Assembly: GCA_016187335.1 (NCBI GenBank)
Contig: JACPJW010000001.1
Span: forward strand, 404,170-468,169
Direction of reading: 5' to 3'
DNA from: Candidatus Aenigmatarchaeota archaeon
GTDB taxonomy: Archaea; Aenigmatarchaeota; Aenigmatarchaeia; GW2011-AR5
DNA: 64,000 nucleotides
Below the pieces are notes generated by a model. That model did no database searches. It was given only the letters and a program-made list of their open reading frames with translations, and had not been told where the DNA came from. The number at the start of each line of letters is the position of its first letter. Position 1 is the stretch's first letter. Both the position numbers and the translations under genes were made by a program. This document shows, piece after piece, positions 6,336-60,563 of the stretch.

Positions 6336-6944
6336 TCAAGGCTTATGTCTTGTAATAGCGTAGTAGGTCACGTCTCCTTCGTTATCCACAATCGCCCATA
6401 ACATCCTTGCTCGTATGTTGTGGGCAAGCCTGACAGAGCGCGAAAGTTCCTGGAACGACATGGTGAAATCCTCCGGCACCGAGAAAACTATCCATTTCGT
6501 GTGCTCTTTGGCGGATTTCGGCCCTTTCTTCAGCTGCACGCCCCTTTCATACACGCGGAAGTCGCAGCCGAACTTGAATCCTGTCCTGACAAGCAGCCCG
6601 CGCTCCCTGAGGTCTTCGTAAACGCGGTAGCGCTCCGTGAACCTTTTGTCCAGAGCAGAAGAATGCCTGAACAGCTCGTCGAATGTTATTTGTTTCTTGC
6701 TGCTGTCAAAGACCCTTATCCTGCCGCGCTTCAGCAGCAGGCACGCTTCTACCAGAGCCAGTTCAAGCCTGTCAGGAAGAATTTTGCCGTAATAGCCGGG
6801 CTCGTAAACGCTTTCAAAGTTTTTCCATGCAACTGCTTTGTTCTCTTCCAGCGTTGTATCCACAACTTCTTTGAAAGGCTCCGGCTCCACGTATTCCGGT
6901 CTATCCTCTTCAGAATCATGCTTTTTCTTGGACATTTTGAACAC
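6336..6944 (-). CDS. endA: tRNA-splicing endonuclease subunit
   Basis: 202 aa; GFKFGCDFRVYERG and EHTKW segments match the EndA catalytic-domain fold (Tyr/His/Lys region). Confidence 0.7.
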   Translation of the reverse strand: MFKMSKKKHDSEEDRPEYVEPEPFKEVVDTTLEENKAVAWKNFESVYEPGYYGKILPDRLELALVEACLLLKRGRIRVFDSSKKQITFDELFRHSSALDKRFTERYRVYEDLRERGLLVRTGFKFGCDFRVYERGVQLKKGPKSAKEHTKWIVFSVPEDFTMSFQELSRSVRLAHNIRARMLWAIVDNEGDVTYYAITRHKP

Positions 6945-7079: not shown

Positions 7080-7643
7080 TTAAGCGTAGTTTGTCTCGCC
7101 CGTTGCGCAATTGACGGTCAGATTTCCGCTGCATATGATTTTGTCATTCTCGATGCGCCACTGCTTCACCGTTGCGCTGTCCACATCGGATATTGTGCAG
7201 CATATGGATTTCACTGAGTTTTTCACAAGGTTCTTGTAGCCTATTGCAGATGCAGACTGGTTGGATTTTATGCTGTTTAACTCATTTCTGCATTCGTTCA
7301 GGCTGCTTTCCGACGAAGTTCTCAGGCTTGACAAATCGCCCTCGCACTTGCCAAGGCTTGCCGAATTACTCTGCAGATTCCCGGAACACTCGTTATAAAG
7401 AGCCGTTTTGTCATTAAGGCTTTTTGCGCAATCCACGCGCGCAGTTGAAATAATCTTCAGGTCCTCTTTGGTGTTGTTGAGCTCCGATTCAAGCTTTGTG
7501 GTGTAGGTCGTGTAGCCTGTAAAAACAGTTCCTACGGAATAAAGCACAAAAACAACAAGCACGGCAATAAGCGCGATTCCTATTTTTTTAGTATCTATAT
7601 TCATCTTGCCCGGCGGCGCGTATTCGTAACCCATAATTACCAT
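7080..7643 (-). CDS. Membrane-anchored Cys-rich extracellular protein
   Basis: 187 aa; N-terminal TM helix (IGIALIAVLVVFVLYSVG) followed by Cys-containing repeats. Confidence 0.5.
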   Translation of the reverse strand: MVIMGYEYAPPGKMNIDTKKIGIALIAVLVVFVLYSVGTVFTGYTTYTTKLESELNNTKEDLKIISTARVDCAKSLNDKTALYNECSGNLQSNSASLGKCEGDLSSLRTSSESSLNECRNELNSIKSNQSASAIGYKNLVKNSVKSICCTISDVDSATVKQWRIENDKIICSGNLTVNCATGETNYA

Positions 7644-7743
7644 TTCGCCGGGGCGATATTAATAGGTTGCCTTTAGAAAGCAGCAAAGAAAGCGTAATGC
7701 GGGTGTGATTTAACCCTTTTAGAAAAAGCGTCACGGAAAAAGA

Positions 7744-7980
7744 TGGGAAGGGAGGGATTTCCAGAACTTTTCATCGTTTTCCTCGAAGAACATCAGTTCT
7801 TCGGTATCTCGGAGAACTATCGTTCTCCGCAGATGATCGAACTTTTCTGAAAAGTTCGTTTGGACCCTCGACATTCCCGGCGTAGCACCAATCAAGTGCT
7901 ATGCTCCACGGTCTTCAGCCGTGTGCTCTCCCAGGCTTTGCCAACCGAAAAAATCATTCTCGGTTTTGAGCTACCTTCCC
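7744..7980 (-). tRNA. tRNA-Phe (anticodon GAA) with three putative introns (D-loop, variable loop, T-loop)
   Basis: Minus-strand acceptor GGGAAGG/CCTTCCC with discriminator A; D-stem GCTC/GAGC with AGCCUGGGA loop; anticodon arm CACGG-CUGAAGA-CCGTG; exons sum to about 73 nt; T-loop junction uncertain. Confidence 0.5.
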
Positions 7981-9431: not shown

Positions 9432-12146
9432 TTAATCCAGGAAATCGCCCTTCTTCAGCTTATTAGGAAGGTAGGTCTCGGACATGAACTTAAGGCCGCG
9501 GTGCGACAAAGCTTCTATCTCGGCTTTTATTCCTTTTTCTATCATCAGGTTGATTTCCTTCTTCCATCTCGGGTTCTTGCTAAACCACTCGTAGTTGAGT
9601 AGTTCCTTCGCGCGCTTTATGTCAACTTCCTTGCATTTTATTGTCGCTTTTTTCAGGTCATACTCAAATATATCCGATATAGTAAGACCTATGTATCTGG
9701 CTTCCGGTGTCGCAATCCGATCTGAGACGTGAGCTAGGCTTATGGATCCGGATTTGATAACTGAATAAATATAGAAGCCGTACGAATCACTGTCGCAGCA
9801 TACATATACAGGCAGCTTGTGATCTTGGTTCAGCCTTTGTATCAGCAGCCTTGTTCCGCGTGATGGCTGCCCGCCTGTGCCGATCAAAACGCACTTCTGT
9901 TTCTGCCAGAACTTGTCCTCATGAAGCCGCTCAAAGCCTGCGTTCTTCTCCACGACCAAGACAAAGTCCGCGTTGACTTTTTTGAAATCTATTTCATCCA
10001 CGGTGCTCGGTATGGACCATCCCCCGCTTCCGAGCTTTGACCAGTCTATGCTGTCGCCGCGGTCTTCAATAATAACGTTGCCGGCGACAATGCCCTTTCT
10101 GTCGGTGGTGAGGTGCAATTGCTCGCGCAGAACGTCTATAGCCACTTCTATGTCAACAATTATAGGGTCAGAATTATGTAGAATTATAAATCCATTACCA
10201 CCAATGAAATTCTCAGTAGGTTCGACTGAAAGATCAACTGTATATTCAGGAGTTGGAGCGTCATTTATTTCAACTATCTTGTCCCACATAATGTCACTAT
10301 TAGCTATGGTTTCAAGTTCGGATACCAGCTGTAAATCTGGAGAATACTTTTGTAACTGCATCAAGGCGTTATATAACACAGGTCTGCTTATCGATTCGTT
10401 TTTATTTTCTATATAACTCCATGAAAAGTGGTTCCATTCAACACGATCCTTACAGGACTTTCTGACTTTTTCTACCAATTTCCCTATGTTTGGTATCCTG
10501 TCAGAAGATACGTCGTGTTTCCGCGGCTTACTGAATCTTTTATCATTGATTATTTCAGCCATCAATTTTACATCTTCTCTATTACCTATTCTAATTTCAT
10601 ATGCGTTATGGTGATTAGGATTTTGGACGCTTCTTTTATAGCGATAAATTCTTGCAAAAATTCCAAGCCTAAGCAGTAAAAATACCAATCCGTTAGCCAG
10701 CTTTTCGCTAGTTGTGTGGTACCTTAATCTAAATTTTGGAAGAAAAGTACTACCGTCTCCAAGCATAAACGAGAAAAGAAACATCTGTATACAATTTTCA
10801 GGTGAATCAAGCAAAACACGCGGTATTTCTTTATTCCATGCTCTGCAAGGCTTATACCCAATAACATAAGTCAATATGTGACTCAAAGTATCGTAACCTA
10901 CATTTAGCTTATAAACTCCATCTTTACCTAAACGTATCTTTCCGCTTACACAGCTTTTACCAAATGATTTTTCAAAGCAAATCATAAACTGCTTGAGAAG
11001 CTCTGAAGATTTGTTAGAAATAGCTACATGGTATGATTTTCGTGGTTCAAAAAGTGAATGCGAGCCTTCGCTCAAAAGAAGCCCTAGTACAAATCCTAAA
11101 TTTTCATCTTTTTTTATTAAAGCGTTGTAATAGTTCTTTGCACCCCTTCTTCCAATTTTTATTTTAGGAAGCAGATCTGAAATATCAATTCCGGTCGTTT
11201 TTACGACTTTAATTGGAATTGTTTTCCAGTTAATCCAGTTGGCTTTAACGTCAGACCATACATTCTTGTATCCGAAGTCATTTGAAATATTTTTTAGCTT
11301 ATCATTACCTATAAGCCTGATTATTTCTTTTATCGTGTCTTTATCCGATTTTATGTAAAATTCTTTTAATACACTTTCAGGGCAATTTTCAATAAGCTTT
11401 TCTAAAATATTTATATGATCAGAATTAACACCGACTTCTATTTTTCTTGGGATGGCTATCCAGTCTCCTATCTTTAGTTCTGATGTTTTTATGGATACAG
11501 GTTTTCCTTCAGAATTTGTAAACAAGCTGTGAGATTTAGTTACTTTGACACGCCTGCCACTTGATGTGATTATTTCCTTTACAATGTTAGGCGGGTGTTT
11601 CATTACCATCAGAACTTTCTGCTCCTTAATCCTGTAATTTTCATCGAAAGCGCAAACCTTAATGTCGCCAACTAAAATCTTCTTTTTATTACCATCATCA
11701 TAAATAATTCTCCCAAATTTTTCAGCATGGTCTACGACTTCGCTTGCTTGAGCTATTCTGAGTTCATCGTTTATTCTTACCAACAAAGGTTCATCGGGGC
11801 ATACAGACTCGCTCTGCTCGTCAAAGGTATTCTCGTTGCTGTCCGGCAGTGTCCTTTTCAGGTTGTAGTACATGTCTCGGATGCTGGCATGGATTTTCTC
11901 ATCAATGAGCGATTTACAGAAAGCACCGACCATAAGCGTCTGCATGAACTTCTTGGAGTGCGCGACGTTGAAGTAATACCTTTTTGCTGTCTTGGTGCCA
12001 AGCCTGAGCTGGCCGGTTTTCCTGTCGTAAACTACGTTGGAAAGAGCGCGTATTGGTATCTCTATGTTCGGGTTCTCGCCTTTCTCTATGTCATGCACGA
12101 CTTTCTTGCCCAGAACATTCAGTTCCTTTCTTACGTCTTTTTCCAT
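9432..12146 (-). CDS. top6A: DNA topoisomerase VI subunit A (Spo11-like) interrupted by an intein
   Basis: 904 aa; extein N-part (IPIRALSNVVYD...RDMYY) and C-part (WSKLGSGGWSIPS, Toprim LIGTGGQPSRGTR) match Top6A; central 543 aa has intein/LAGLIDADG blocks. Confidence 0.85.
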   Translation of the reverse strand: MEKDVRKELNVLGKKVVHDIEKGENPNIEIPIRALSNVVYDRKTGQLRLGTKTAKRYYFNVAHSKKFMQTLMVGAFCKSLIDEKIHASIRDMYYNLKRTLPDSNENTFDEQSESVCPDEPLLVRINDELRIAQASEVVDHAEKFGRIIYDDGNKKKILVGDIKVCAFDENYRIKEQKVLMVMKHPPNIVKEIITSSGRRVKVTKSHSLFTNSEGKPVSIKTSELKIGDWIAIPRKIEVGVNSDHINILEKLIENCPESVLKEFYIKSDKDTIKEIIRLIGNDKLKNISNDFGYKNVWSDVKANWINWKTIPIKVVKTTGIDISDLLPKIKIGRRGAKNYYNALIKKDENLGFVLGLLLSEGSHSLFEPRKSYHVAISNKSSELLKQFMICFEKSFGKSCVSGKIRLGKDGVYKLNVGYDTLSHILTYVIGYKPCRAWNKEIPRVLLDSPENCIQMFLFSFMLGDGSTFLPKFRLRYHTTSEKLANGLVFLLLRLGIFARIYRYKRSVQNPNHHNAYEIRIGNREDVKLMAEIINDKRFSKPRKHDVSSDRIPNIGKLVEKVRKSCKDRVEWNHFSWSYIENKNESISRPVLYNALMQLQKYSPDLQLVSELETIANSDIMWDKIVEINDAPTPEYTVDLSVEPTENFIGGNGFIILHNSDPIIVDIEVAIDVLREQLHLTTDRKGIVAGNVIIEDRGDSIDWSKLGSGGWSIPSTVDEIDFKKVNADFVLVVEKNAGFERLHEDKFWQKQKCVLIGTGGQPSRGTRLLIQRLNQDHKLPVYVCCDSDSYGFYIYSVIKSGSISLAHVSDRIATPEARYIGLTISDIFEYDLKKATIKCKEVDIKRAKELLNYEWFSKNPRWKKEINLMIEKGIKAEIEALSHRGLKFMSETYLPNKLKKGDFLD
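10173..11801 (-). mobile_element. Intein with LAGLIDADG homing-endonuclease domain inside top6A
   Basis: Begins with Cys after ...DEQSESV, block B GRRVKVTKSHSLFT, LAGLIDADG-like LGFVLGLLLSEGS and FLFSFMLGDGS, ends GFIILHN followed by Ser; region is A/T-rich relative to exteins. Confidence 0.7.
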
Positions 12147-15336: not shown

Positions 15337-15392
15337 GCGATGAAATTTGCTGTAAAGTATAAGAACACATGACGGATACATTTTTTTGACAG

Positions 15393-15473
15393 AACTTTTT
15401 CCTAAAAAGTTCTTTTTGATTAAACTTTTTCCTAAAAAGTTCTTTTTGATTAAACTTTTTCCTAAAAAGTTTA
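15393..15473. repeat. Tandem array (about 2.7 copies) of 30-bp unit AACTTTTTCCTAAAAAGTTCTTTTTGATTA
   Basis: Direct repeats read from sequence; each unit contains the palindrome AACTTTTT-CCT-AAAAAGTT; lies immediately upstream of the zinc-ribbon gene start. Confidence 0.85.
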
Positions 15474-25598: not shown

Positions 25599-25750
25599 TT
25601 CAAATACACCTCGTTAATAGAATTTCTTTCCATGCACGCTTTCATTTTTGACGCAACTTTTTCCTAAAAGTTGCCGTATACTTTCATGCACATACATAGA
25701 AGAAGCTAATCTTTAAAAGGGTTGCGGTGCGGCTTAGCGTGTCACACAAT

Positions 25751-28827: not shown

Positions 28828-28940
28828 GGGCTTGTAGTCTAGAGACCCTTTAGAAAAAGCGTCTACGAAAAGGGTTGGAAAATGGTTATGACGTCGCCTT
28901 CACACGGCGAAGGTCGGCGGTTCGAATCCGCCCGAGCCCA
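28828..28940 (+). tRNA. tRNA-Val (anticodon CAC) with 40-nt D-loop intron
   Basis: GGGCTTG-TA-GTCT-AG [intron 28843-28882] TGGTTA-TGAC-G-TCGCC-TTCACAC-GGCGA-AGGTC-GGCGG-TTCGAAT-CCGCC-CGAGCCC-A; exons sum to 73 nt. Confidence 0.8.
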
Positions 28941-28993
28941 TAGCAACTTTCTGGAAAAAAGTTGCATTTAAGCATTACGATATTAGTGGAAAT

Positions 28994-35903: not shown

Positions 35904-38900
35904 TTACTTTATTTTCTTTATCTCTATACCTATTTTCCTGCCTTCAAAGTCCAGTTTTTCCCCTTCCGCCTTCGCGAACACGACCTTCGCCGCCCCCACT
36001 TCGTTCTTTATTTCTTTTTCCCATTTCTTCAGTTCCCCGGCCCCTTCTATTTTCAAGGCAATTTTGTCCATGACAACAAGCCCTGATTTCTTGCGCATAT
36101 CCTGCACTTTTCTGACAACCTCGCGGAGCAGGGCCTCTTTTTTCAGCTCGTCGGTGAGCAGCGTGTCCAGTTCCAGCTTGCCGCCGTCAAAGGGAACGCC
36201 ATTGTTCGTGTTTGCAAAAACAGCGGCTTTGACATTGCACATATTCTTTATTATTTCTGCAAAAGGCTTGAGATTCTCTTTGCTGTCCACTGTAAGCTTT
36301 GCCAGGGGCCACCTTATTTTTATGTTGCTTTCATGCCTTTGCGAGTTGGATGCTTCGACAAGGTTTTTTACGATATTCATGGCTTTCTCCGCCTTTGCGC
36401 TGATGTATTTTGAATCGTACTTAGGCCAGTCCCTGGTATGCACGGATTCCTTTTCGCCGAGGATTTCGAGGTTTATCTGCTCGGCGAGATACGGCGTTAT
36501 AGGCGCTAAAAGCTGCGATGTTTTTTCTGCTATCTCGTATAAGGTGTAAAAGGCCGCTTCCTTGTCTTTCCCTGAATACGCCGGCCATACGCGGTCCCGG
36601 ATCAGCTTTATGTACCACCTTGAAAAGTCGTTTACTAGGAAATCATGCAGCTCTGTTACGGCCTTGTGGCCGTTGTAGCTGCAGAAATGCTGGGTGCAGT
36701 TCTTTATGGTGGTGTTCAGGCGCGAAAGAATCCATTTGTCCTCTATATTCAGTTTTTTTGGCATTGAACCGCTTGACGCGTCGGTCTGTTTCGGTTTTGT
36801 TGCGTAGGTCTTCACGAAATTAAAGCTGTTTTCTATCACAATAAGAGACCTCGCAATGGCTTCAACGTCCGGCCACTTGAAGTAGAAGTCATCCCACGGC
36901 GCGCTTGACAGCAGATAGAAGCGAAGCACGTCCCGGCCGTATTTTTTTATAATGTCCTCCGGCTCGACAATATTTCCTTTGCTCTTTGACATTTTCACGC
37001 CGTGAGCGTCAAGTATGAAGCCGTGGAAAAGTATGTTCGTGAAGGGCTTCTCATCAAATGTTATTACCGACGTTATCAGCTCGGCGTTCCACCAGCCTCT
37101 GATTTGATCCGGGCCTTCTGTCTGGAAGTCGCTTGGCCACAGTTTCTTGAACAACGCCTTGTTTTTCGGGTAGCCGAGGGATGCCCATCCGGCAAGGCCG
37201 GCGTCAAACCAGACATCAAGGACATCGGCTATCCGTTTCATCGCAGAGCCGCACCTGCATTTCAAAAAAACGTTATCAATGTAAGGCCTGTGCAAATCAC
37301 GGGGTATTTCCGGCAATTCGTCAGCGGAGCCGATGACCTTGACGCTTTCGCATTTCTCGCATATCCATATCGGCAGCGGTATGCCCCAGTAGCGCTGCCT
37401 TGATATAGGCCAGTCGCCGAGGTTTTCAAGCCAGTTGTTGAACCGTTGCTTTGCCCATTCAGGGTACCAGTTCACATTCTTGTTTTCCTTGATGAGCTTG
37501 TCCCTTATCTTCGTCACGCGGAAGAACCACTGCGACACGGATATCAGCAGCAGGGGAGTGCTGCAGCGCCAGCATTGCGGGTAGTCGTGCGTTATCGTTT
37601 CCTCCTTCAGCAGCAGGTCTTTTTCCTTCAGCAGTTCAATTATTTTTTTGTCGCTTGCCTTGACAGGATTTCCAGCAAAAGCACCGCATTTCTCGTCAAA
37701 AGTGCCGTTGATTTTCACCGGAGATATTATGGGCAATTTGTTTTCCAGACCGACTTTGTAGTCCTCCTGTCCGTGCCCGGGGGCGGTGTGGACAAGCCCG
37801 GTGCCGTCTTCCATGCTCACGTACTGCTCTGAAAGCACAACCTTGTGCGCGCCTTTGAGCTGCTGCTGGAATGTAAAAATGTCCCGGAGCGGATGCTCGT
37901 ATTCTGTCCCAGCCAGCTTTTTTCCGGGAAACGTTTCCACAATGCTGAATGGCAGTCCGGCTTTCTTCATAACAGCTTCAAGAAGCGGCTTTGCCAGGAT
38001 AAGAAATTCAGTTCCACCAGAACTTTCCACCATTACCTTGACATATTCGTGCTTCGGATGCGCCATGATGCCTGTATTAGCTGGTAACGTCCACGGCGTT
38101 GTCGTCCATATGACCAGGAACACGTTTTCTTGTCCTTTCACCGGAAACTTAACATAAATAGAAGGGTCCTTGGCTTTGCTGTATTCTATTTCGTTGTACG
38201 CAACGGCTGTTTCGCAATTATGTGTCAAGAAGCCGTTAGTTATAAAGTTGTGATGAGTTTCAACTGCTATATCACATACTTTCCGTTTCCCCTTATATTT
38301 TATAGAATTTATTTCATCCCAAATAAATCCGTCTCTGAGGTCTTTTGCAGCATTTTTTAACCATGCATCGAATGCAGGGGTATATTTGGCAGCACGAACT
38401 GACTTAGACTTGCCATAAACCACATGCCTTACATAAAGTTCAGGTAAGTTAAGCATAATTGCGATTTTGCTGCAAGGGATCTTAGAATGTCTTAGTGATA
38501 AGATCCTACCTTTCAATTTTCTGTATTGTTTCTCAAGTGATTTTTTGTACAGAAGATAGCCCAAAACATGCGAAGCCCTGATTTTTCTGTATTTACAGTA
38601 CTCGTATCCTAAATACCGTATGAATTTAATGAGGTTGTAATCGTTGCAATCTATACTGATAGTGGTCTTCGATTTTTCTATTTTATTAACAATATTTCTT
38701 TCTGTTTTTATTTCTCCTGTCGATACCCCAAACTTATTGATAAGCGCGCATATCTGTTTTGCAAATTCCATCCCGTTTTCTTCTAGATGTCTATTTTTTG
38801 TAAGGTAAAGCCTCAGGCATTCAAATCCCTTTCCATATTTTCTGGGGCTTATTATCTGGAGTTCGCTTCCGAAGTAAGATGCCAAAAATTCCCTTGTTAA

Positions 38901-40421
38901 TTTTTTATTGGACTTTATCCATTTTGGCACAAATGTCTTTGTTTCCGTCTTTTTTCCTATAGGACAGCCTAGCGTTATAAGCAAAACAGCCAAAGACAAA
39001 GAATAACATCTCATGGATGTTGTAAATCCCTTTATTGCTCTGCCATTTACGACAGATTTAGTTGGCACGGTTGAAATATCCGAATGGCTAAAGCCAAGAA
39101 TCTTTAGGTCTTTTTGGATTTCTTTTAAATCTTCCTCTTTTCCGCAGAAATCTATGCCAAATACCGGGAATTTTCTGTTTTTAGATGTACGTACAACAAT
39201 AGATCCATCACCAAAAATATGACCTGCCAATCTGGCTAAAATAAATGATTTTGTAGATTTACTGTGAAGAGGTATCAGTTCTTTATCTTTCAATTCATTT
39301 ATTATAGAATCGTAGCGCGTAAACGTATTTACTTTTAAAATTTTTGCTACCCATGATTTTGAAACTCTTATTTTGAAGGCGTTTTGTATTTCTTTAATAA
39401 TTTTAGTATATGAATAGTTATTTTTTCTAAGTTCGGCAACAAAGTTCTTAATTTTAATTTTCGAATGACTTGTAAGGTCGTTAAATTTATGCAGATCTCT
39501 GAAAACTATATTTTCTAAGTTCTGCAAAGTAAACATTACATTATTCTCATTTACAAGAGCTTTGCCTGTTTCCGTAATTTCCGGCAGTCTGCTTTCCACA
39601 TTATTATATACGGCCACTTTGGTTCCTATTCTGAGCTTAGAAAGAGTCATCCATCCATCTTGCGTCCAGAACGGATGATCACTCGAAGCGATTAGTTTCT
39701 TTCCTGTTAGCGTTTTTACAAGAAATACATTATCTTCCAATTCCACATAGCCCAGAGGTTTTGCCGTAGTTAGAAGTTTAGAATTAGTATCAACAGCTAC
39801 AACCGTGTTGTGTTTCCAGCAGCCTTTCAGTTCTCCTATTTTTCTTGTTCCCCCTTCAACAAGAATAGTAGAATTAGGATCAACGCATCTCGGGCATACA
39901 TGCACCGGATAAAGACCCTTGTAGAGCAGTCCCTTGTCGTAAGCGGTCTTGAACGTGTGCCACGCGCCCTCTATGTACTCGTTGTTGTACGTTATGTAAG
40001 GGTTGTCCCAGTCCATCCACACGCCAAGATTCAGGAACTGGTTATTCATGACAGAAATGAACTGGCTGACGAACGCCCTGCATTCCTTGTTGAATCTCTC
40101 GACGCCTAGCCTTTCTATATCAGCCTTTGATTTTATCTCCAGTTTTTGCTCGACCTTGTTTTCTATCGGCAGCCCGTGGGTGTCGTAGCCCGGCTGGTCC
40201 CATACGTCGAAGCCGGACATGCGCCAGAATCGGATGTAGCTATCCTTCAATATTTTGTTCCAGGCAGTGCCTATGTGTATGTAGCCCGTGGCGTAAGGCG
40301 GGCCGTCAAGGAAGTAGAATTTCTTCTTTCCTTTTCTTTTTGTCTTGGCCTTCTGGTAAATGCCGTCTTTTGCCCAGAACTCGGCGATTTCTTCTTCTTT
40401 TTTCTTGCGGCTTTCTATCAT
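35904..40421 (-). CDS. ileS: Isoleucyl-tRNA synthetase interrupted by an intein
   Basis: 1505 aa; HIGH (YIHIGT), KMSKS (KMSKSKGN), WPISRQRYWGIPLP; 557-aa insertion between CPR and CETA of the zinc-binding region. Confidence 0.9.
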   Translation of the reverse strand: MIESRKKKEEEIAEFWAKDGIYQKAKTKRKGKKKFYFLDGPPYATGYIHIGTAWNKILKDSYIRFWRMSGFDVWDQPGYDTHGLPIENKVEQKLEIKSKADIERLGVERFNKECRAFVSQFISVMNNQFLNLGVWMDWDNPYITYNNEYIEGAWHTFKTAYDKGLLYKGLYPVHVCPRCVDPNSTILVEGGTRKIGELKGCWKHNTVVAVDTNSKLLTTAKPLGYVELEDNVFLVKTLTGKKLIASSDHPFWTQDGWMTLSKLRIGTKVAVYNNVESRLPEITETGKALVNENNVMFTLQNLENIVFRDLHKFNDLTSHSKIKIKNFVAELRKNNYSYTKIIKEIQNAFKIRVSKSWVAKILKVNTFTRYDSIINELKDKELIPLHSKSTKSFILARLAGHIFGDGSIVVRTSKNRKFPVFGIDFCGKEEDLKEIQKDLKILGFSHSDISTVPTKSVVNGRAIKGFTTSMRCYSLSLAVLLITLGCPIGKKTETKTFVPKWIKSNKKLTREFLASYFGSELQIISPRKYGKGFECLRLYLTKNRHLEENGMEFAKQICALINKFGVSTGEIKTERNIVNKIEKSKTTISIDCNDYNLIKFIRYLGYEYCKYRKIRASHVLGYLLYKKSLEKQYRKLKGRILSLRHSKIPCSKIAIMLNLPELYVRHVVYGKSKSVRAAKYTPAFDAWLKNAAKDLRDGFIWDEINSIKYKGKRKVCDIAVETHHNFITNGFLTHNCETAVAYNEIEYSKAKDPSIYVKFPVKGQENVFLVIWTTTPWTLPANTGIMAHPKHEYVKVMVESSGGTEFLILAKPLLEAVMKKAGLPFSIVETFPGKKLAGTEYEHPLRDIFTFQQQLKGAHKVVLSEQYVSMEDGTGLVHTAPGHGQEDYKVGLENKLPIISPVKINGTFDEKCGAFAGNPVKASDKKIIELLKEKDLLLKEETITHDYPQCWRCSTPLLLISVSQWFFRVTKIRDKLIKENKNVNWYPEWAKQRFNNWLENLGDWPISRQRYWGIPLPIWICEKCESVKVIGSADELPEIPRDLHRPYIDNVFLKCRCGSAMKRIADVLDVWFDAGLAGWASLGYPKNKALFKKLWPSDFQTEGPDQIRGWWNAELITSVITFDEKPFTNILFHGFILDAHGVKMSKSKGNIVEPEDIIKKYGRDVLRFYLLSSAPWDDFYFKWPDVEAIARSLIVIENSFNFVKTYATKPKQTDASSGSMPKKLNIEDKWILSRLNTTIKNCTQHFCSYNGHKAVTELHDFLVNDFSRWYIKLIRDRVWPAYSGKDKEAAFYTLYEIAEKTSQLLAPITPYLAEQINLEILGEKESVHTRDWPKYDSKYISAKAEKAMNIVKNLVEASNSQRHESNIKIRWPLAKLTVDSKENLKPFAEIIKNMCNVKAAVFANTNNGVPFDGGKLELDTLLTDELKKEALLREVVRKVQDMRKKSGLVVMDKIALKIEGAGELKKWEKEIKNEVGAAKVVFAKAEGEKLDFEGRKIGIEIKKIK
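38217..39887 (-). mobile_element. Intein with LAGLIDADG homing-endonuclease domain inside ileS
   Basis: Starts CVDPNSTILVEGG, contains ILARLAGHIFGDGSI, ends FLTHN followed by Cys; A/T-rich relative to exteins. Confidence 0.7.
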
Positions 40422-41195: not shown

Positions 41196-41330
41196 GGCCG
41201 CCATGGTGTAGAAAGCCCTTTTTGACGCTTCGCTTATCAAAAAGCGCTTGCGGAAATAATTAGGGTTTGCAAATTGGTAGCATCGGAGCCTGTGGAGCTC
41301 CTTGGCTGGGTTCGAATCCCAGTGGCGGCC
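41196..41330 (+). tRNA. tRNA-His (anticodon GUG) with encoded G-1 and 63-nt D-loop intron
   Basis: G-1 plus GCCGCCA, D-stem GTGT/GCAT, D-loop AG [intron 41212-41274] TGGTA, anticodon arm GGAGC-CTGTGGA-GCTCC, T-arm CTGGG-TTCGAAT-CCCAG, acceptor TGGCGGC, discriminator C. Confidence 0.8.
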
Positions 41331-41360
41331 CTAAATTATTGTTATGATTAAGAAAATAAT

Positions 41361-51228: not shown

Positions 51229-51492
51229 GCGCCCGTAGCTCAGCTTGGCAAACTTTGCTACTCCAAAGTTTGATCAAAAGAGGTCTGTGACGAAGTTTGA
51301 GCAAATAGAGCACTTCTCTCCTAGAGGTGAATTGAGCGCAACGGAAGACTGAAGTTTCTGAAGAAACTTCAGCCGGTTTTGTGCGATGATAATTTCCTGA
51401 AGTGAGGAAGGGGCCGCGCGTTCGAATGCACCCTTTCTTGGAAAGAAAGCGTGCACGGAAAGAAAAGGGTGCCGAATATCGCGCCGGGCGCG
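51229..51492 (+). tRNA. tRNA-Arg (anticodon CCU) with three introns
   Basis: Exons GCGCCCG-TA-GCTC-AGCTTGG / TAGAGC-A-CTTCT-CTCCTA / A-GGAAG-GGGCC-GCGCG-TTCGAAT / CGCGC-CGGGCGC-G; introns about 51249-51305, 51324-51404, 51428-51479; exons sum to 74 nt. Confidence 0.8.
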
Positions 51493-55578: not shown

Positions 55579-56379
55579 ATGTACGTTGTCAAGGCCGACG
55601 GCCGGCGCGAGACTTTCAGCAAAGAGAAAATAATAAATACATGCCTCAAGGCCGGAACCGACAGGAAGAAGGCTGAGGAAATATCAGGAAAAGTTTTTTC
55701 GTCCGTCAAAGACGGGATTGCCACGAAGGAAATATACAGAATGATTCTGAATCTTCTTGAAAAAGCGAGCCATAGGTCATCTTTCTTTTTCCGCCTCAGG
55801 GACGCAATAGCAAAGCTCGATTCTGAAAGCTATGAACTCTATGTAAAAGAGCTTTTGGAATCCATGGGCTACAAATGCTCGTGGAATAAAATCATTGCCG
55901 GAAAATCCGTGGAGCATCAGGTTGATATTGTTGCAAAAAACGCGAAAGGCAGAATGTTTCTTGTTGAATGCAAAAGGCACGTGAACCCCCACAGGTTCTG
56001 CGGCCTGGGCGTCATTTTGCAGGTCCAGGCGCGCCTTGAGGACATAGATGACGGCTTCGAATCAGGGAAAAATAATTGCAGGTTTGACCAGGCGTGGATA
56101 TTCAACAACACGAAATTCTCGGAGCACGCAAAGCAGTACGCTGCGGCAAAAAATATCCTCCTGAGCGGATGGGGGTACAAAGGAAGCATTTCTATAGAAA
56201 AGCTTGCTGGCAGGAACAGGATATATCCCGTGACGCTGCTGAAAGCAGACAATTCAACAATACAGCAGCTGCTCCGTCAGAAAATAATCACGGTGGAGGA
56301 TGTCCTGAAAGAAAAGATAAGCATGCCGAAGAGCGTTGCCGATGAGCTCAGGAAGCAGGCACGTATCATTCTTTCTTAA
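55579..56379 (+). CDS. ATP-cone domain fused to Mrr-like restriction-endonuclease domain
   Basis: 266 aa; ATP-cone start MYVVKADGRRETFSKEKI; nuclease-like core YELYVKELLESMGYK...QVDIVAKNAKGRMFLVECKRH. Confidence 0.6.
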   Translation: MYVVKADGRRETFSKEKIINTCLKAGTDRKKAEEISGKVFSSVKDGIATKEIYRMILNLLEKASHRSSFFFRLRDAIAKLDSESYELYVKELLESMGYKCSWNKIIAGKSVEHQVDIVAKNAKGRMFLVECKRHVNPHRFCGLGVILQVQARLEDIDDGFESGKNNCRFDQAWIFNNTKFSEHAKQYAAAKNILLSGWGYKGSISIEKLAGRNRIYPVTLLKADNSTIQQLLRQKIITVEDVLKEKISMPKSVADELRKQARIILS

Positions 56380-56404: not shown

Positions 56405-56509
56405 GCCGGCGTCGCATAATCTGGTGGTGCACTGATTGCATGCGAAGCAAGTGTATGTCTCGAAAACCAGCGGGCTCTGCCCATGCAGGTTCAAATCCTG
56501 CCGCCGGCG
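56405..56509 (+). tRNA. tRNA, anticodon unresolved, probably intron-containing
   Basis: Acceptor GCCGGCG/CGCCGGC with discriminator G; T-arm GCAGG-TTCAAAT-CCTGC; internal 73 nt could not be folded into a unique cloverleaf. Confidence 0.5.
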
Positions 56510-56513
56510 CTTT

Positions 56514-57022: not shown

Positions 57023-57282
57023 GCCGGGATACCGAAATCAGGTCTCTCAAGATAAGAGTGAAGAAATTCACGATGATTGCCTTTCATTGGTAAACGGGCC
57101 AGTGCAGTTCCGCTTCAAAGAAGCGGTGCGGCCAACCTTGAGAGCTGGTGCGCCTTCGGCGCGTGGGGGTTCAAAGCACCCTTTCTTTTTGCAAAAGAAA
57201 GCGTGCGCGGAAAGAAAAGCAACTTTTCAGAAAAGTTGCATCAAAAATAAAGGAAAGGGCTGTGAAATTCCCTCTCCCGGCG
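57023..57282 (+). tRNA. Class II tRNA, tentatively tRNA-Ser (UGA), with three putative introns
   Basis: Acceptor GCCGGGA/TCCCGGC, discriminator G; anticodon arm CCAGT [intron] CTTGAGA-GCTGG; variable arm GCGCC-TTC-GGCGC; T-arm GGGGG-TTCAAA [~93-nt intron] T-CCCTC; exons sum to about 87 nt. Confidence 0.5.
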
Positions 57283-59484: not shown

Positions 59485-59665
59485 GCGATGGTAGTCTAGG
59501 AACCCTTTTTCTCGTTGCGCTCGAAAAAGCGTTCACGGAAAATGGGTTGGAAGATGGTAGGATACAACCTTGCCAACGGCCCTTTTCAAAAAGCGCCGGC
59601 GGAAAATGCAAACAGGTTGAGAGGCGAAAGCCCGACAAACCCGGGTTCAAATCCCGGCCGTCGCA
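59485..59665 (+). tRNA. tRNA-Gly (anticodon GCC) with D-loop, anticodon-loop and variable-region introns
   Basis: GCGATGG-TA-GTCT-AG [intron] TGGTA-GGAT-A-CAACC-TTGCCA [intron] A-GGTTG ... CCGGG-TTCAAAT-CCCGG-CCGTCGC-A; exons sum to about 72 nt. Confidence 0.6.
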
Positions 59666-60291: not shown

Positions 60292-60563
60292 GCGGCCGTC
60301 GCCAAGAGGCCCTTTTTAGAAAAAAGCGTCTACGGAAAAACTAAAAAGCGTCTGGAAATCTGGTCAAAGGCGCGGGTTTCACTTGAGTGTTGATGCGCAA
60401 GCAGGTGAAAGCGTAACTCAAGGCAGCTGACGAGGCTGACGCACTTCGTGCGTCATGCTGTTTGATATCCCGTCGGTTAGTCCGTTCGGCGGTTCGAATG
60501 CACCCTTTCTTAGAAAGAAAGCGTGCACGGAAAGAAATGGTGCCGAAAATCCGCCCGGCCGCA
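60292..60563 (+). tRNA. Class II tRNA, probably tRNA-Leu, with three introns (anticodon unresolved)
   Basis: GCGGCCG-TC-GCC-AAG [53-nt intron] CTGGTCAAA-GGC matches the tRNA-Leu D-arm; T-arm GGCGG-TTCGAAT [51-nt intron] CCGCC-CGGCCGC-A; a third ~83-nt intron in the anticodon region gives 85-nt exons. Confidence 0.55.

Follow-up and report, generated by a model that had tools for sequence, protein, structure and literature searches.

The 64,000-nucleotide stretch analyzed here (hereafter, the window; contig JACPJW010000001.1 of assembly GCA_016187335.1, positions 404,170 to 468,169 of the forward strand) belongs to an Aenigmarchaeote, a member of the DPANN (Diapherotrites, Parvarchaeota, Aenigmarchaeota, Nanoarchaeota, Nanohaloarchaeota) archaea. 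Its gene content is archaeal and includes topoisomerase VI, genes of the mevalonate pathway and, judging from the translation, a thermosome. Six tRNA genes in the window are interrupted by introns that share a short motif, which an earlier note, made from the sequence alone, had described as a palindromic core. Here we show that this motif forms the 3' half of a conserved hairpin-plus-tail module of ~27-50 nt, denoted family A where it has to be distinguished from a sister family, and we favor a tiny mobile element, which the module looks like, over the nuclease site suggested previously.

Standard tools detect few of these tRNA genes. ARAGORN with default settings predicted no tRNAs in the 64-kb window and, with the -i option, returned mis-called anticodons only; the Rfam tRNA model identified only three tRNAs. 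After deletion of the inserts, ARAGORN called Val(cac), His(gtg) and Gly(gcc), in agreement with the identities given in the earlier note. tRNA-Val(CAC) occupies positions 28828-28940(+), with a D-loop bulge-helix-bulge (BHB) intron at ~28845-28880; tRNA-His(GUG) occupies 41196-41331(+) and is 76 nt long without its D-loop intron (41214-41272); and tRNA-Gly(GCC), called after the D-loop deletion, occupies 59485-59665(+), with a D-loop intron at 59502-59552, a 38-nt intron in the canonical position at 59576-59613 and, probably, a third, short intron in the variable region. The other three genes are on the same strand. A 264-nt gene with several introns (51229-51492), delimited by the acceptor halves GCGCCCG/CGGGCGC, has a T-loop intron at 51427-51478. 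A type II gene at 57023-57282 (acceptor GCCGGGA/UCCCGGC; T-loop intron at ~57176-57266) is tRNA-Ser(UGA)-like, Ser(tga) being the most frequent ARAGORN call among the full-length variants (54). Another type II gene, at 60292-60563, has a D-loop intron at ~60308-60359 and a T-loop intron at 60499-60549. For the first and the last of these three genes, ARAGORN did not verify the labels Arg and Leu that they had received before, and the anticodon calls were unstable. The tRNA-Gly gene and these three are heavily fragmented: each spans 180-270 nt and has an estimated 3-4 introns; to our knowledge, more than three introns per tRNA would be above the maximum reported for archaea.

The motif AAAGCGNNNNCGGAAA, with at most one mismatch, has 10 matches in the window, compared to 1.0 +/- 1.0 expected and a maximum of 4 in 100 dinucleotide shuffles. 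A covariance model (R1) built from 21 copies of other archaea, with zero window sequences, independently recovered nine window copies with filters off (E from 8e-12 to 1.4e-6), all nine on the plus strand; the next match (E 8.5e-4) is partial and lies within a coding region. The claim that the motif is non-random and common to D-loop, anticodon-loop and T-loop introns therefore holds, with R1 matches in six tRNA genes. Eight of the nine copies are within introns: the D-loop introns of tRNA-Val (28842-28873, E 6e-7) and tRNA-His (41213-41256, E 3e-7, with outer pairs AAG...CUU), the T-loop introns of the 264-nt gene (51427-51463, E 5e-7) and of the Ser(UGA)-like gene (57175-57215, E 1.4e-6), the D-loop intron (59499-59543, E 8e-12) and the canonical 37/38 intron (59576-59607, E 8e-9) of tRNA-Gly, and the D-loop and T-loop introns of the type II gene at 60292 (60306-60340, E 2.6e-10, and 60499-60535, E 3.7e-7). 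The D-loop intron of this last gene had been credited with two copies; it contains one module, and the second is a partial duplicate consisting of the 3' strand plus the tail. The ninth copy is solo and intergenic, at 7710-7741(+) (E 4.6e-10), ~770 nt from the gene for the tRNA-intron endonuclease EndA. This copy had been placed near 7724-7740, next to a tRNA-Phe; the copy is real, but the tRNA-Phe is absent, no Rfam tRNA being found there at E<=10. It is slightly degenerate, because GCG and CGG are separated by three bases instead of four and the outer pair is imperfect, and its surroundings read as the upstream region of the open reading frame (ORF) 7080-7643(-). The EndA neighborhoods of two relatives (L151 and L152) lack the solo copy; because synteny with the window is preserved on one side only, both say little about it.

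Copies in other genomes were all first gathered with one exact pattern, CCCTTT-N(1-25)-AAAGCGNNNNCGGAAA, scanned over 100,044 species genomes, which yielded at least 120 loci, ~90 of them archaeal among those listed; the R1 counts given below are likewise those among the matches listed. Aligned, the copies conform to the consensus 5'-NNN-CCC-U(3-4)-[a short loop or an additional stem that varies]-A(3-4)-GCG-N'N'N'-R-CGG-A(3-4)-3', with a conserved C·C mismatch. The copy in tRNA-Val, for instance, reads AGA-CCC-UUU-AGAA-AAA-GCG-UCU-A-CGA-AAA, where AGA pairs with UCU. Alignment of the short copies shows that, of the four variable bases, the first three match the reverse complement of the triplet just 5' of CCC. 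All three of these flank pairs are formed in 92 of 100 archaeal copies, compared to a mean of 26 and a maximum of 40 in shuffles, and in 8 of 61 chance matches in bacteria and viruses; the fourth variable position (-4 versus 4) is paired in 28% only. Across the 113 R1 matches in other genomes, 98.7% of the cells are paired and 108 cells carry double changes, compared to 26 in shuffles; in slid controls on the same 113 copies, at most 59% are paired. The outermost pair is GC in 41 copies, AU in 29, CG in 26 and UA in 10, and the other two outer pairs are AU 93, GC 10, CG 6 and AU 78, GC 23. In the apical variable part, compensating helices such as GCAC/GUGC, AGCG/CGCU and CUGUC/GACAG are apparent by eye.

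The palindromic 8-mer is accordingly incidental because it is composed of GCG-N'N'N'-R-CGG, with N'N'N' pairing with the 5' flank. The view that the central 8-mer is a palindrome or hairpin of its own is not supported, given the 92 of 100 copies in which its first three variable bases pair elsewhere, and the T and A of GCGTnnACGG are not invariant either, with CTTG and CCGG variants also occurring. As to whether pairing or strict conservation prevails, a question raised together with the motif, the compensatory substitutions at the three outer pairs speak for pairing, but the palindrome is not the pairing unit. The variable bases change freely between copies with compensation in the 5' flank, which is unlike a fixed protein recognition sequence, and the suggestion of a dimeric protein or nuclease site is contradicted by this pattern. 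A further candidate fold, a CG-YNNR-CG mini-hairpin whose tetraloop would resemble CUUG/UUCG, was dropped in view of the covariation with the 5' flank. Comparison of the tail with the purine strand of the stem, in view of a purine-motif triplex, found the A/G tracts nearly mirror-symmetric, so that mirror and direct repeats are indistinguishable. On inspection, the consensus does not match the kink-turn (K-turn), the hammerhead or other cores of small ribozymes. The C box RUGAUGA, the D box CUGA and tandem G·A pairs are absent from the consensus, and no Rfam snoRNA match overlaps the copies. None of the families of Rfam 15 matched the window copies at E<=10, and in 19 loci of other genomes the Rfam gathering threshold gave matches only to the tRNA, rRNA and RNase P RNA of the host.

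The module-bearing introns were searched for BHB motifs with a strict scan (hBHBh': a 4-bp helix between two 3-nt bulges, with a further helix on either side). Four of the eight introns contain a strict hBHBh': the D-loop introns of tRNA-Val (28845-28880) and tRNA-Gly (59502-59552) and the T-loop introns at 51427-51478 and 60499-60549. The remaining four, namely the His intron, the anticodon intron of Gly, the D-loop intron of Leu and the T-loop intron of Ser, fit relaxed BHB forms only. In tRNA-Val, the strict scan gives Ha CUAG, B1 AGA, h2 CCCUUU/AAAGGG, Hb UUGG and B2 AAA. The T-loop intron at 51427-51478 forms a perfect hBHBh' with a UUCG/CGAA helix, bulges AAU and UAU, an h1 of 5 bp and an h2 of 9 bp, and in both T-loop introns with a strict hBHBh', the one at 60499-60549 being perfect as well, the central helix pairs the T-loop UUCG with an intronic CGAA. 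Removal of the inserts restores canonical tRNAs for Val, His and Gly. The predicted splice signal is built by exon bases together with the 3' end of the intron, and the core is not part of it; no BHB was found, by the scan plus inspection, inside free-standing copies of the module or copies within coding sequences.

The window encodes EndA at 6336-6944(-), with the Pfam domains tRNA_int_endo and tRNA_int_endo_N (PF01974, PF02778). The protein is 100% identical to an NCBI protein from a Candidatus Aenigmarchaeota metagenome-assembled genome (MAG), 1a79 is the top match in the PDB (E 6e-33), and its closest counterpart is the alpha4 enzyme of M. jannaschii, relative to which it contains an insertion of ~6 residues (query residues 139-145). 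This insertion may correspond to the DPANN 'L3' loop, a feature of EndA that has been associated with increased tRNA gene disruption (PMC5829648). EndA is the enzyme expected to excise the module-bearing introns, and the strict or relaxed BHB forms together with its presence predict their removal as ordinary EndA-type introns.

The module extends well beyond this genome. At least 113 R1 copies were identified in at least 28 genomes, often at several loci per genome. The hosts listed represent at least ten other archaeal lineages and comprise Aenigmatarchaeota, Woesearchaeota, Nanoarchaeota, Micrarchaeota, Parvarchaeota, Altiarchaeota, Diapherotrites, anaerobic methanotrophs of group 1 (ANME-1, Methanophagales; three MAGs among the matches listed), Methanocellales (one), Thermococcus (three) and Bathyarchaeota. 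Strong matches are also present on IMG/VR viral contigs, one of them beside a duplicated tRNA 3' end. On that contig (L008), the module at 705-740 lies exactly where a partial duplicate (21 nt) of a tRNA 3' end meets the full tRNA on the opposite strand, an arrangement that resembles an attachment site used by an integrated element. A match in trpB of a bathyarchaeote (L081) and ~30 bacterial pattern matches were judged to be chance matches.

At least 54 of the 113 copies are located within tRNA genes or directly 3' of them, always in sense orientation, either in introns of the D, anticodon, variable and T regions or starting 2-5 nt past the tRNA 3' end. About half of the 113 copies fall outside tRNA introns, so that the module is not intron-specific. 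In two Aenigmatarchaeota, copies are inserted into the 16S rRNA gene (L094, 1349-1393(-); L098, 883-934(-) and 1082-1122(-)), and in an ANME-1 MAG, a copy is inserted into the RNase P RNA gene (L090, 6669-6704(+)), adjoining the GAGGAAAGTCC box. According to the Rfam matches, each of these insertions has the sense orientation; they may be spliced out or be tolerated as expansions. Further copies are at stop codons or between genes, with the upstream gene on the same strand in 12 cases and on the opposite strand in 11. Finally, ANME-1-type coding genes contain in-frame, stop-free copies, in the C-terminus of CobN, in an ORF whose translation reads as CbiZ-like, and in tnpA of the IS200 type. 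The copies within coding sequences at ANME-1 loci L044, L046, L134, L135 and L140 have an additional 3' segment, A(4-6)-N-GCTTCGCAG, with GCTTCGCAA as the family B version; the intergenic copies of those genomes lack it.

Family B is a sister hairpin of the form NN-AAC-UUUU-loop-AAAA-GUU-N'N', with the tail AAUCAAAAA or (A)RUCAAAAA and the same architecture as family A. Its outer pairs compensate as well (GCAAC/GTTGC, CGAAC/GTTCG, AAAAC/GTTTT). There are about ten copies in the window, in intergenic DNA, in a D-loop intron and nested in a family A intron. The hairpin scan detected three copies in tandem at 15392-15472(-) and others at 7838-7858, 21924, 22520, 25653-25690(-), 27454(-) and 57219-57247, the last nested in the T-loop intron of the Ser-like gene; copies at 28941-28963 and at ~51249-51280, in the D-loop intron of the tRNA gene at 51229-51492, were recognized by eye. 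Family B also occurs in frame in ANME-1 tnpA (L135, L137).

Comparison of related loci reveals insertion and turnover of these elements. Paralogues of ANME-1 tnpA differ by an exact 39-nt in-frame insert, CCCTTTTAGAAAAAGCGTTTACGGAAAAATGCTTCGCAG, and the flanking codons show synonymous divergence. At a second site of this gene, two copies hold family B and another holds family A, the two families having inserted there independently. The window genes for tRNA-Gly and tRNA-Leu flank a conserved Aenigmarchaeota-specific ORF, and in four related genomes their intron sets differ. tRNA-Gly(GCC) of the window has introns in the D-loop (family A), the anticodon (family A) and the variable region; the L153 orthologue has introns in the variable region and the T-loop (other type); L154, a short anticodon remnant, AAAAGCGGAAC, and a T-loop intron (family A); L155, an anticodon intron (other type) only; and L156, introns in the D-loop (family B-like), the variable region and the T-loop (other type). 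The D-loop is empty in L153-L155. The tRNA-Leu orthologues likewise differ in the presence, position and type of introns. The L154 remnant (~1310-1330, canonical position) resembles a collapsed module, with AAAAGCG joined to GAA, and hints at a decay route of such introns. Introns more than 70% similar in unrelated tRNAs are regarded as transposed, and the T-loop introns at 51427-51478 and 60499-60549, which belong to two different tRNAs and are near-identical by eye, form such a pair.

The anatomy, spread, contexts and turnover observed here would be accounted for if the module were the signature of miniature non-autonomous mobile elements dispersed across Archaea, whose copies in RNA genes survive where EndA splices. 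We consider this explanation probable. Under it, the module copies of the Aenigmarchaeote would ride inside short introns of tRNA D-, anticodon- and T-loops; the host EndA would cut these introns from the pre-tRNA, reading a BHB made of exon bases plus an adaptor at the intron 3' end and not the module core, and a host RNA ligase would then join the ends. The conserved bases would serve as a cis-signal for a putative mobilizing machinery, and movement could proceed at the DNA level, in a hairpin-dependent manner reminiscent of REP (repetitive extragenic palindromic) sequences or IS200, or at the RNA level, by reverse splicing plus cDNA. Selection would then act as a filter: copies in stable RNAs would persist only in sense orientation and when BHB-forming, copies in coding genes only in frame and stop-free, and intergenic copies in either orientation.

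Several considerations weigh against this explanation. A consistent target-site duplication was not found: the CCC repeat alone appears at one filled/empty pair, the other copies having been inspected by eye. Among the 20 window ORFs scanned, there is neither a transposase nor a reverse transcriptase that could act as the mobilizing enzyme. None of the introns inspected consists of the bare module alone. G·U accounts for 7 of the variable pairs and A·C mismatches for ~6, which does not separate selection at the DNA level from selection at the RNA level; G·U being no commoner than A·C, there is no sign of selection on one RNA strand only. The ~20 bases invariant across phyla are unusual for a purely selfish non-autonomous element, and this invariance could reflect binding by a universal host factor. 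The single exact pattern used to gather the copies biases the spread and the context frequencies.

A more specific form of the mobile-element explanation gives the tail a direct part in splicing. The tail CGGA is complementary to the T-loop UUCG. At the 3' end of true D- and T-loop introns stands YGRA-AAN (UGGAAAA, UGGAAGA, CGAAUAU), which comprises the 3' strand of the central BHB helix and the second bulge, and the tail CGGA-AAA of the module has the same form. A four-out-of-four complement to CGGA located exactly 3 nt upstream of the hairpin is found in 11 of 111 copies, compared to ~2 expected and 0-3 at other offsets, and many introns resemble a module followed by a second copy of the 3' strand, the helix strand and the bulge. 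Speculatively, CGGA+AAA could be a built-in 3' half-BHB that provides one strand of the central helix plus the bulge, and an element that brings half of a splice signal would be predisposed to turn into a spliceable intron. In this form, the module would be the cis core of a pan-archaeal, self-propagating mini-intron that is spliceable at once when it lands beside a complementary tetranucleotide, above all UUCG, and is moved by a putative host or viral machinery. We put this forward tentatively, as a possibility that we doubt more than we believe.

Among the explanations that do not invoke mobility, the one that fares best is a functional RNA element: a protein-binding or processing site, or a folding aid, for precursors of intron-bearing tRNA, rRNA and RNase P RNA; in variants of this idea, the excised and probably circularized intron has a job of its own, and free copies are signals of RNA stability or processing. 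It would fit the invariance of ~20 bases, of the stem length and of the C·C mismatch across distant phyla, the sense orientation of every copy in an RNA gene, and the many copies 2-5 nt after tRNA 3' ends or overlapping stop codons. A possible switch can also be read from the sequences, the U-tract pairing alternatively with the first A-tract or with the tail (CCCUUUUCCG...CGGAAAAGG forms, L068 and L054). However, orthologous tRNAs of close relatives manage without the module or with a different element, in-frame copies occur in a transposase gene and in the CobN C-terminus, and intergenic copies have no orientation bias relative to neighboring genes. Moreover, wobble pairs are not favored over A·C mismatches, and the module has no K-turn, C/D boxes or Rfam family. 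We therefore regard this explanation as rather unlikely.

It is less plausible still, and in our view improbable, that the module is a transcription terminator or other 3'-end element, with T4 runs on both strands, that was secondarily captured by introns. Copies located directly after tRNA 3' ends and at stop codons, including those on viral contigs, would fit such a role, as would the T-runs on both strands. However, T4 is a weak terminator in archaea, eight of the nine window copies and ~45 of the 113 elsewhere are inside RNA genes, where termination would be lethal, some are within coding genes, and about half of those between genes do not lie downstream of a gene in the same orientation. 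Finally, a double-stranded DNA site of a dimeric DNA-binding protein or nuclease, for example of the homing type, composed of the palindromic core CGTNNACG with its flanks AAAG and GAAA, is a very remote prospect: several copies are perfect 8-bp palindromes (CGTGCACG, CGCCGGCG), the element is probably mobile, and the window encodes homing endonucleases and inteins, but the commonest centers (TTCA, TTTA, TTGA, CTGG) are not palindromic, the variable bases covary with the 5' flank and not with mirror positions, and AAAGCG and CGGAAA are not mutual inverted repeats.

Among known elements, the module can be compared with REPs and their associated tyrosine transposases (RAYT) and with the ends of IS200/IS605 elements (palindrome-associated transposable elements, PATEs), with which it shares an imperfect hairpin, a conserved mismatch and a short tag at the foot. 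Further REP-like features are the bottom strand of the form TTTTCCG-Y-hairpin, the tens of copies per genome and the tandem clusters of one sister family. Unlike the module, REPs are extragenic and species-specific and are accompanied by a gene for a Y1 transposase; most module copies are inside genes, the module is found across phyla, and no Y1 was detected among the 20 scanned window ORFs. The ANME-1 copies sit inside the IS200-type tnpA, unlike IS200/IS605 hairpins, which flank the gene. When the module is compared with MITEs (miniature transposable elements with inverted repeats), the hairpin arms are inverted repeats, but the 3' tail lies outside the arms.

Rickettsia palindromic elements (RPEs) are small palindromic repeats of ~100-150 bp that are tolerated in frame in bacterial protein-coding genes, occur also in RNA genes and are not spliced out. 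The module resembles them in behavior only, inserting in frame in coding genes, as in ANME-1 tnpA with its 39-nt inserts of family A and of family B, and in RNA genes; sequence and host are unrelated, and the module is shorter (27-50 nt) and embedded in spliceable BHB introns of tRNA genes. It also recalls the C/D-box sRNA of the archaeal tRNA-Trp intron as a conserved structured RNA within a tRNA intron, but has no C box, D box or K-turn and is not confined to one tRNA. The closest precedent comes from Thermoproteales, for whose tRNA genes transposed BHB introns have been inferred (Fujishima et al. 2010, as summarized in PMC4090602), by a mechanism that the 2014 review describes as unresolved. 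According to the same summary, those introns share with the present case the presence of several introns per tRNA, the implied transposition and the link to a broad-specificity EndA (PMC4090602). The present case differs in its host, a DPANN archaeon with an alpha4-like EndA; in that the shared part is a defined hairpin-plus-tail module found across many phyla and not only in one order; and in that the module occurs also in 16S rRNA, RNase P RNA, tRNA 3' flanks, intergenic DNA, coding sequences and viral contigs.

The window contains other insertions. One intein is located in topoisomerase VI subunit A (9432-12146(-); Intein_splicing plus LAGLIDADG_3) and another in isoleucyl-tRNA synthetase (35904-40421(-); Intein_splicing), and this small genome thus hosts several kinds of selfish insertion. 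A gene at 55579-56379(+), directly upstream of tRNA-Ser(CGA) (56405-56510), encodes one protein in which an ATP-cone is combined with a restriction endonuclease domain of the Mrr type and, at the C-terminus, an AF1548-like domain.

The occurrence of similar BHB introns at differing tRNA positions was already known. What appears to be new is the defined module, its conservation across phyla, its sister family, and its presence outside introns and on viral contigs. The view of the earlier note that no described intron element matches stands: no Rfam family was found at E<=10, and no published description of the module was found by searching the literature by topic and sequence string, the 2010 Thermoproteales introns having been compared through the summary in PMC4090602 only. 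A searchable sequence-structure module opens to experiment the route by which archaeal BHB introns reach new positions. If the module is indeed the core of a mini-intron, it would be the long-sought vehicle by which archaeal introns transpose into tRNA, rRNA, RNase P RNA and also mRNA. Incomplete prediction of tRNA sets is a recognized problem in these lineages (PMC5829648). Because standard finders miss nearly all tRNA genes of the window, the module could serve, in DPANN and other uncultured archaea, as a flag for hidden, multiply interrupted genes of tRNA, rRNA and RNase P RNA.

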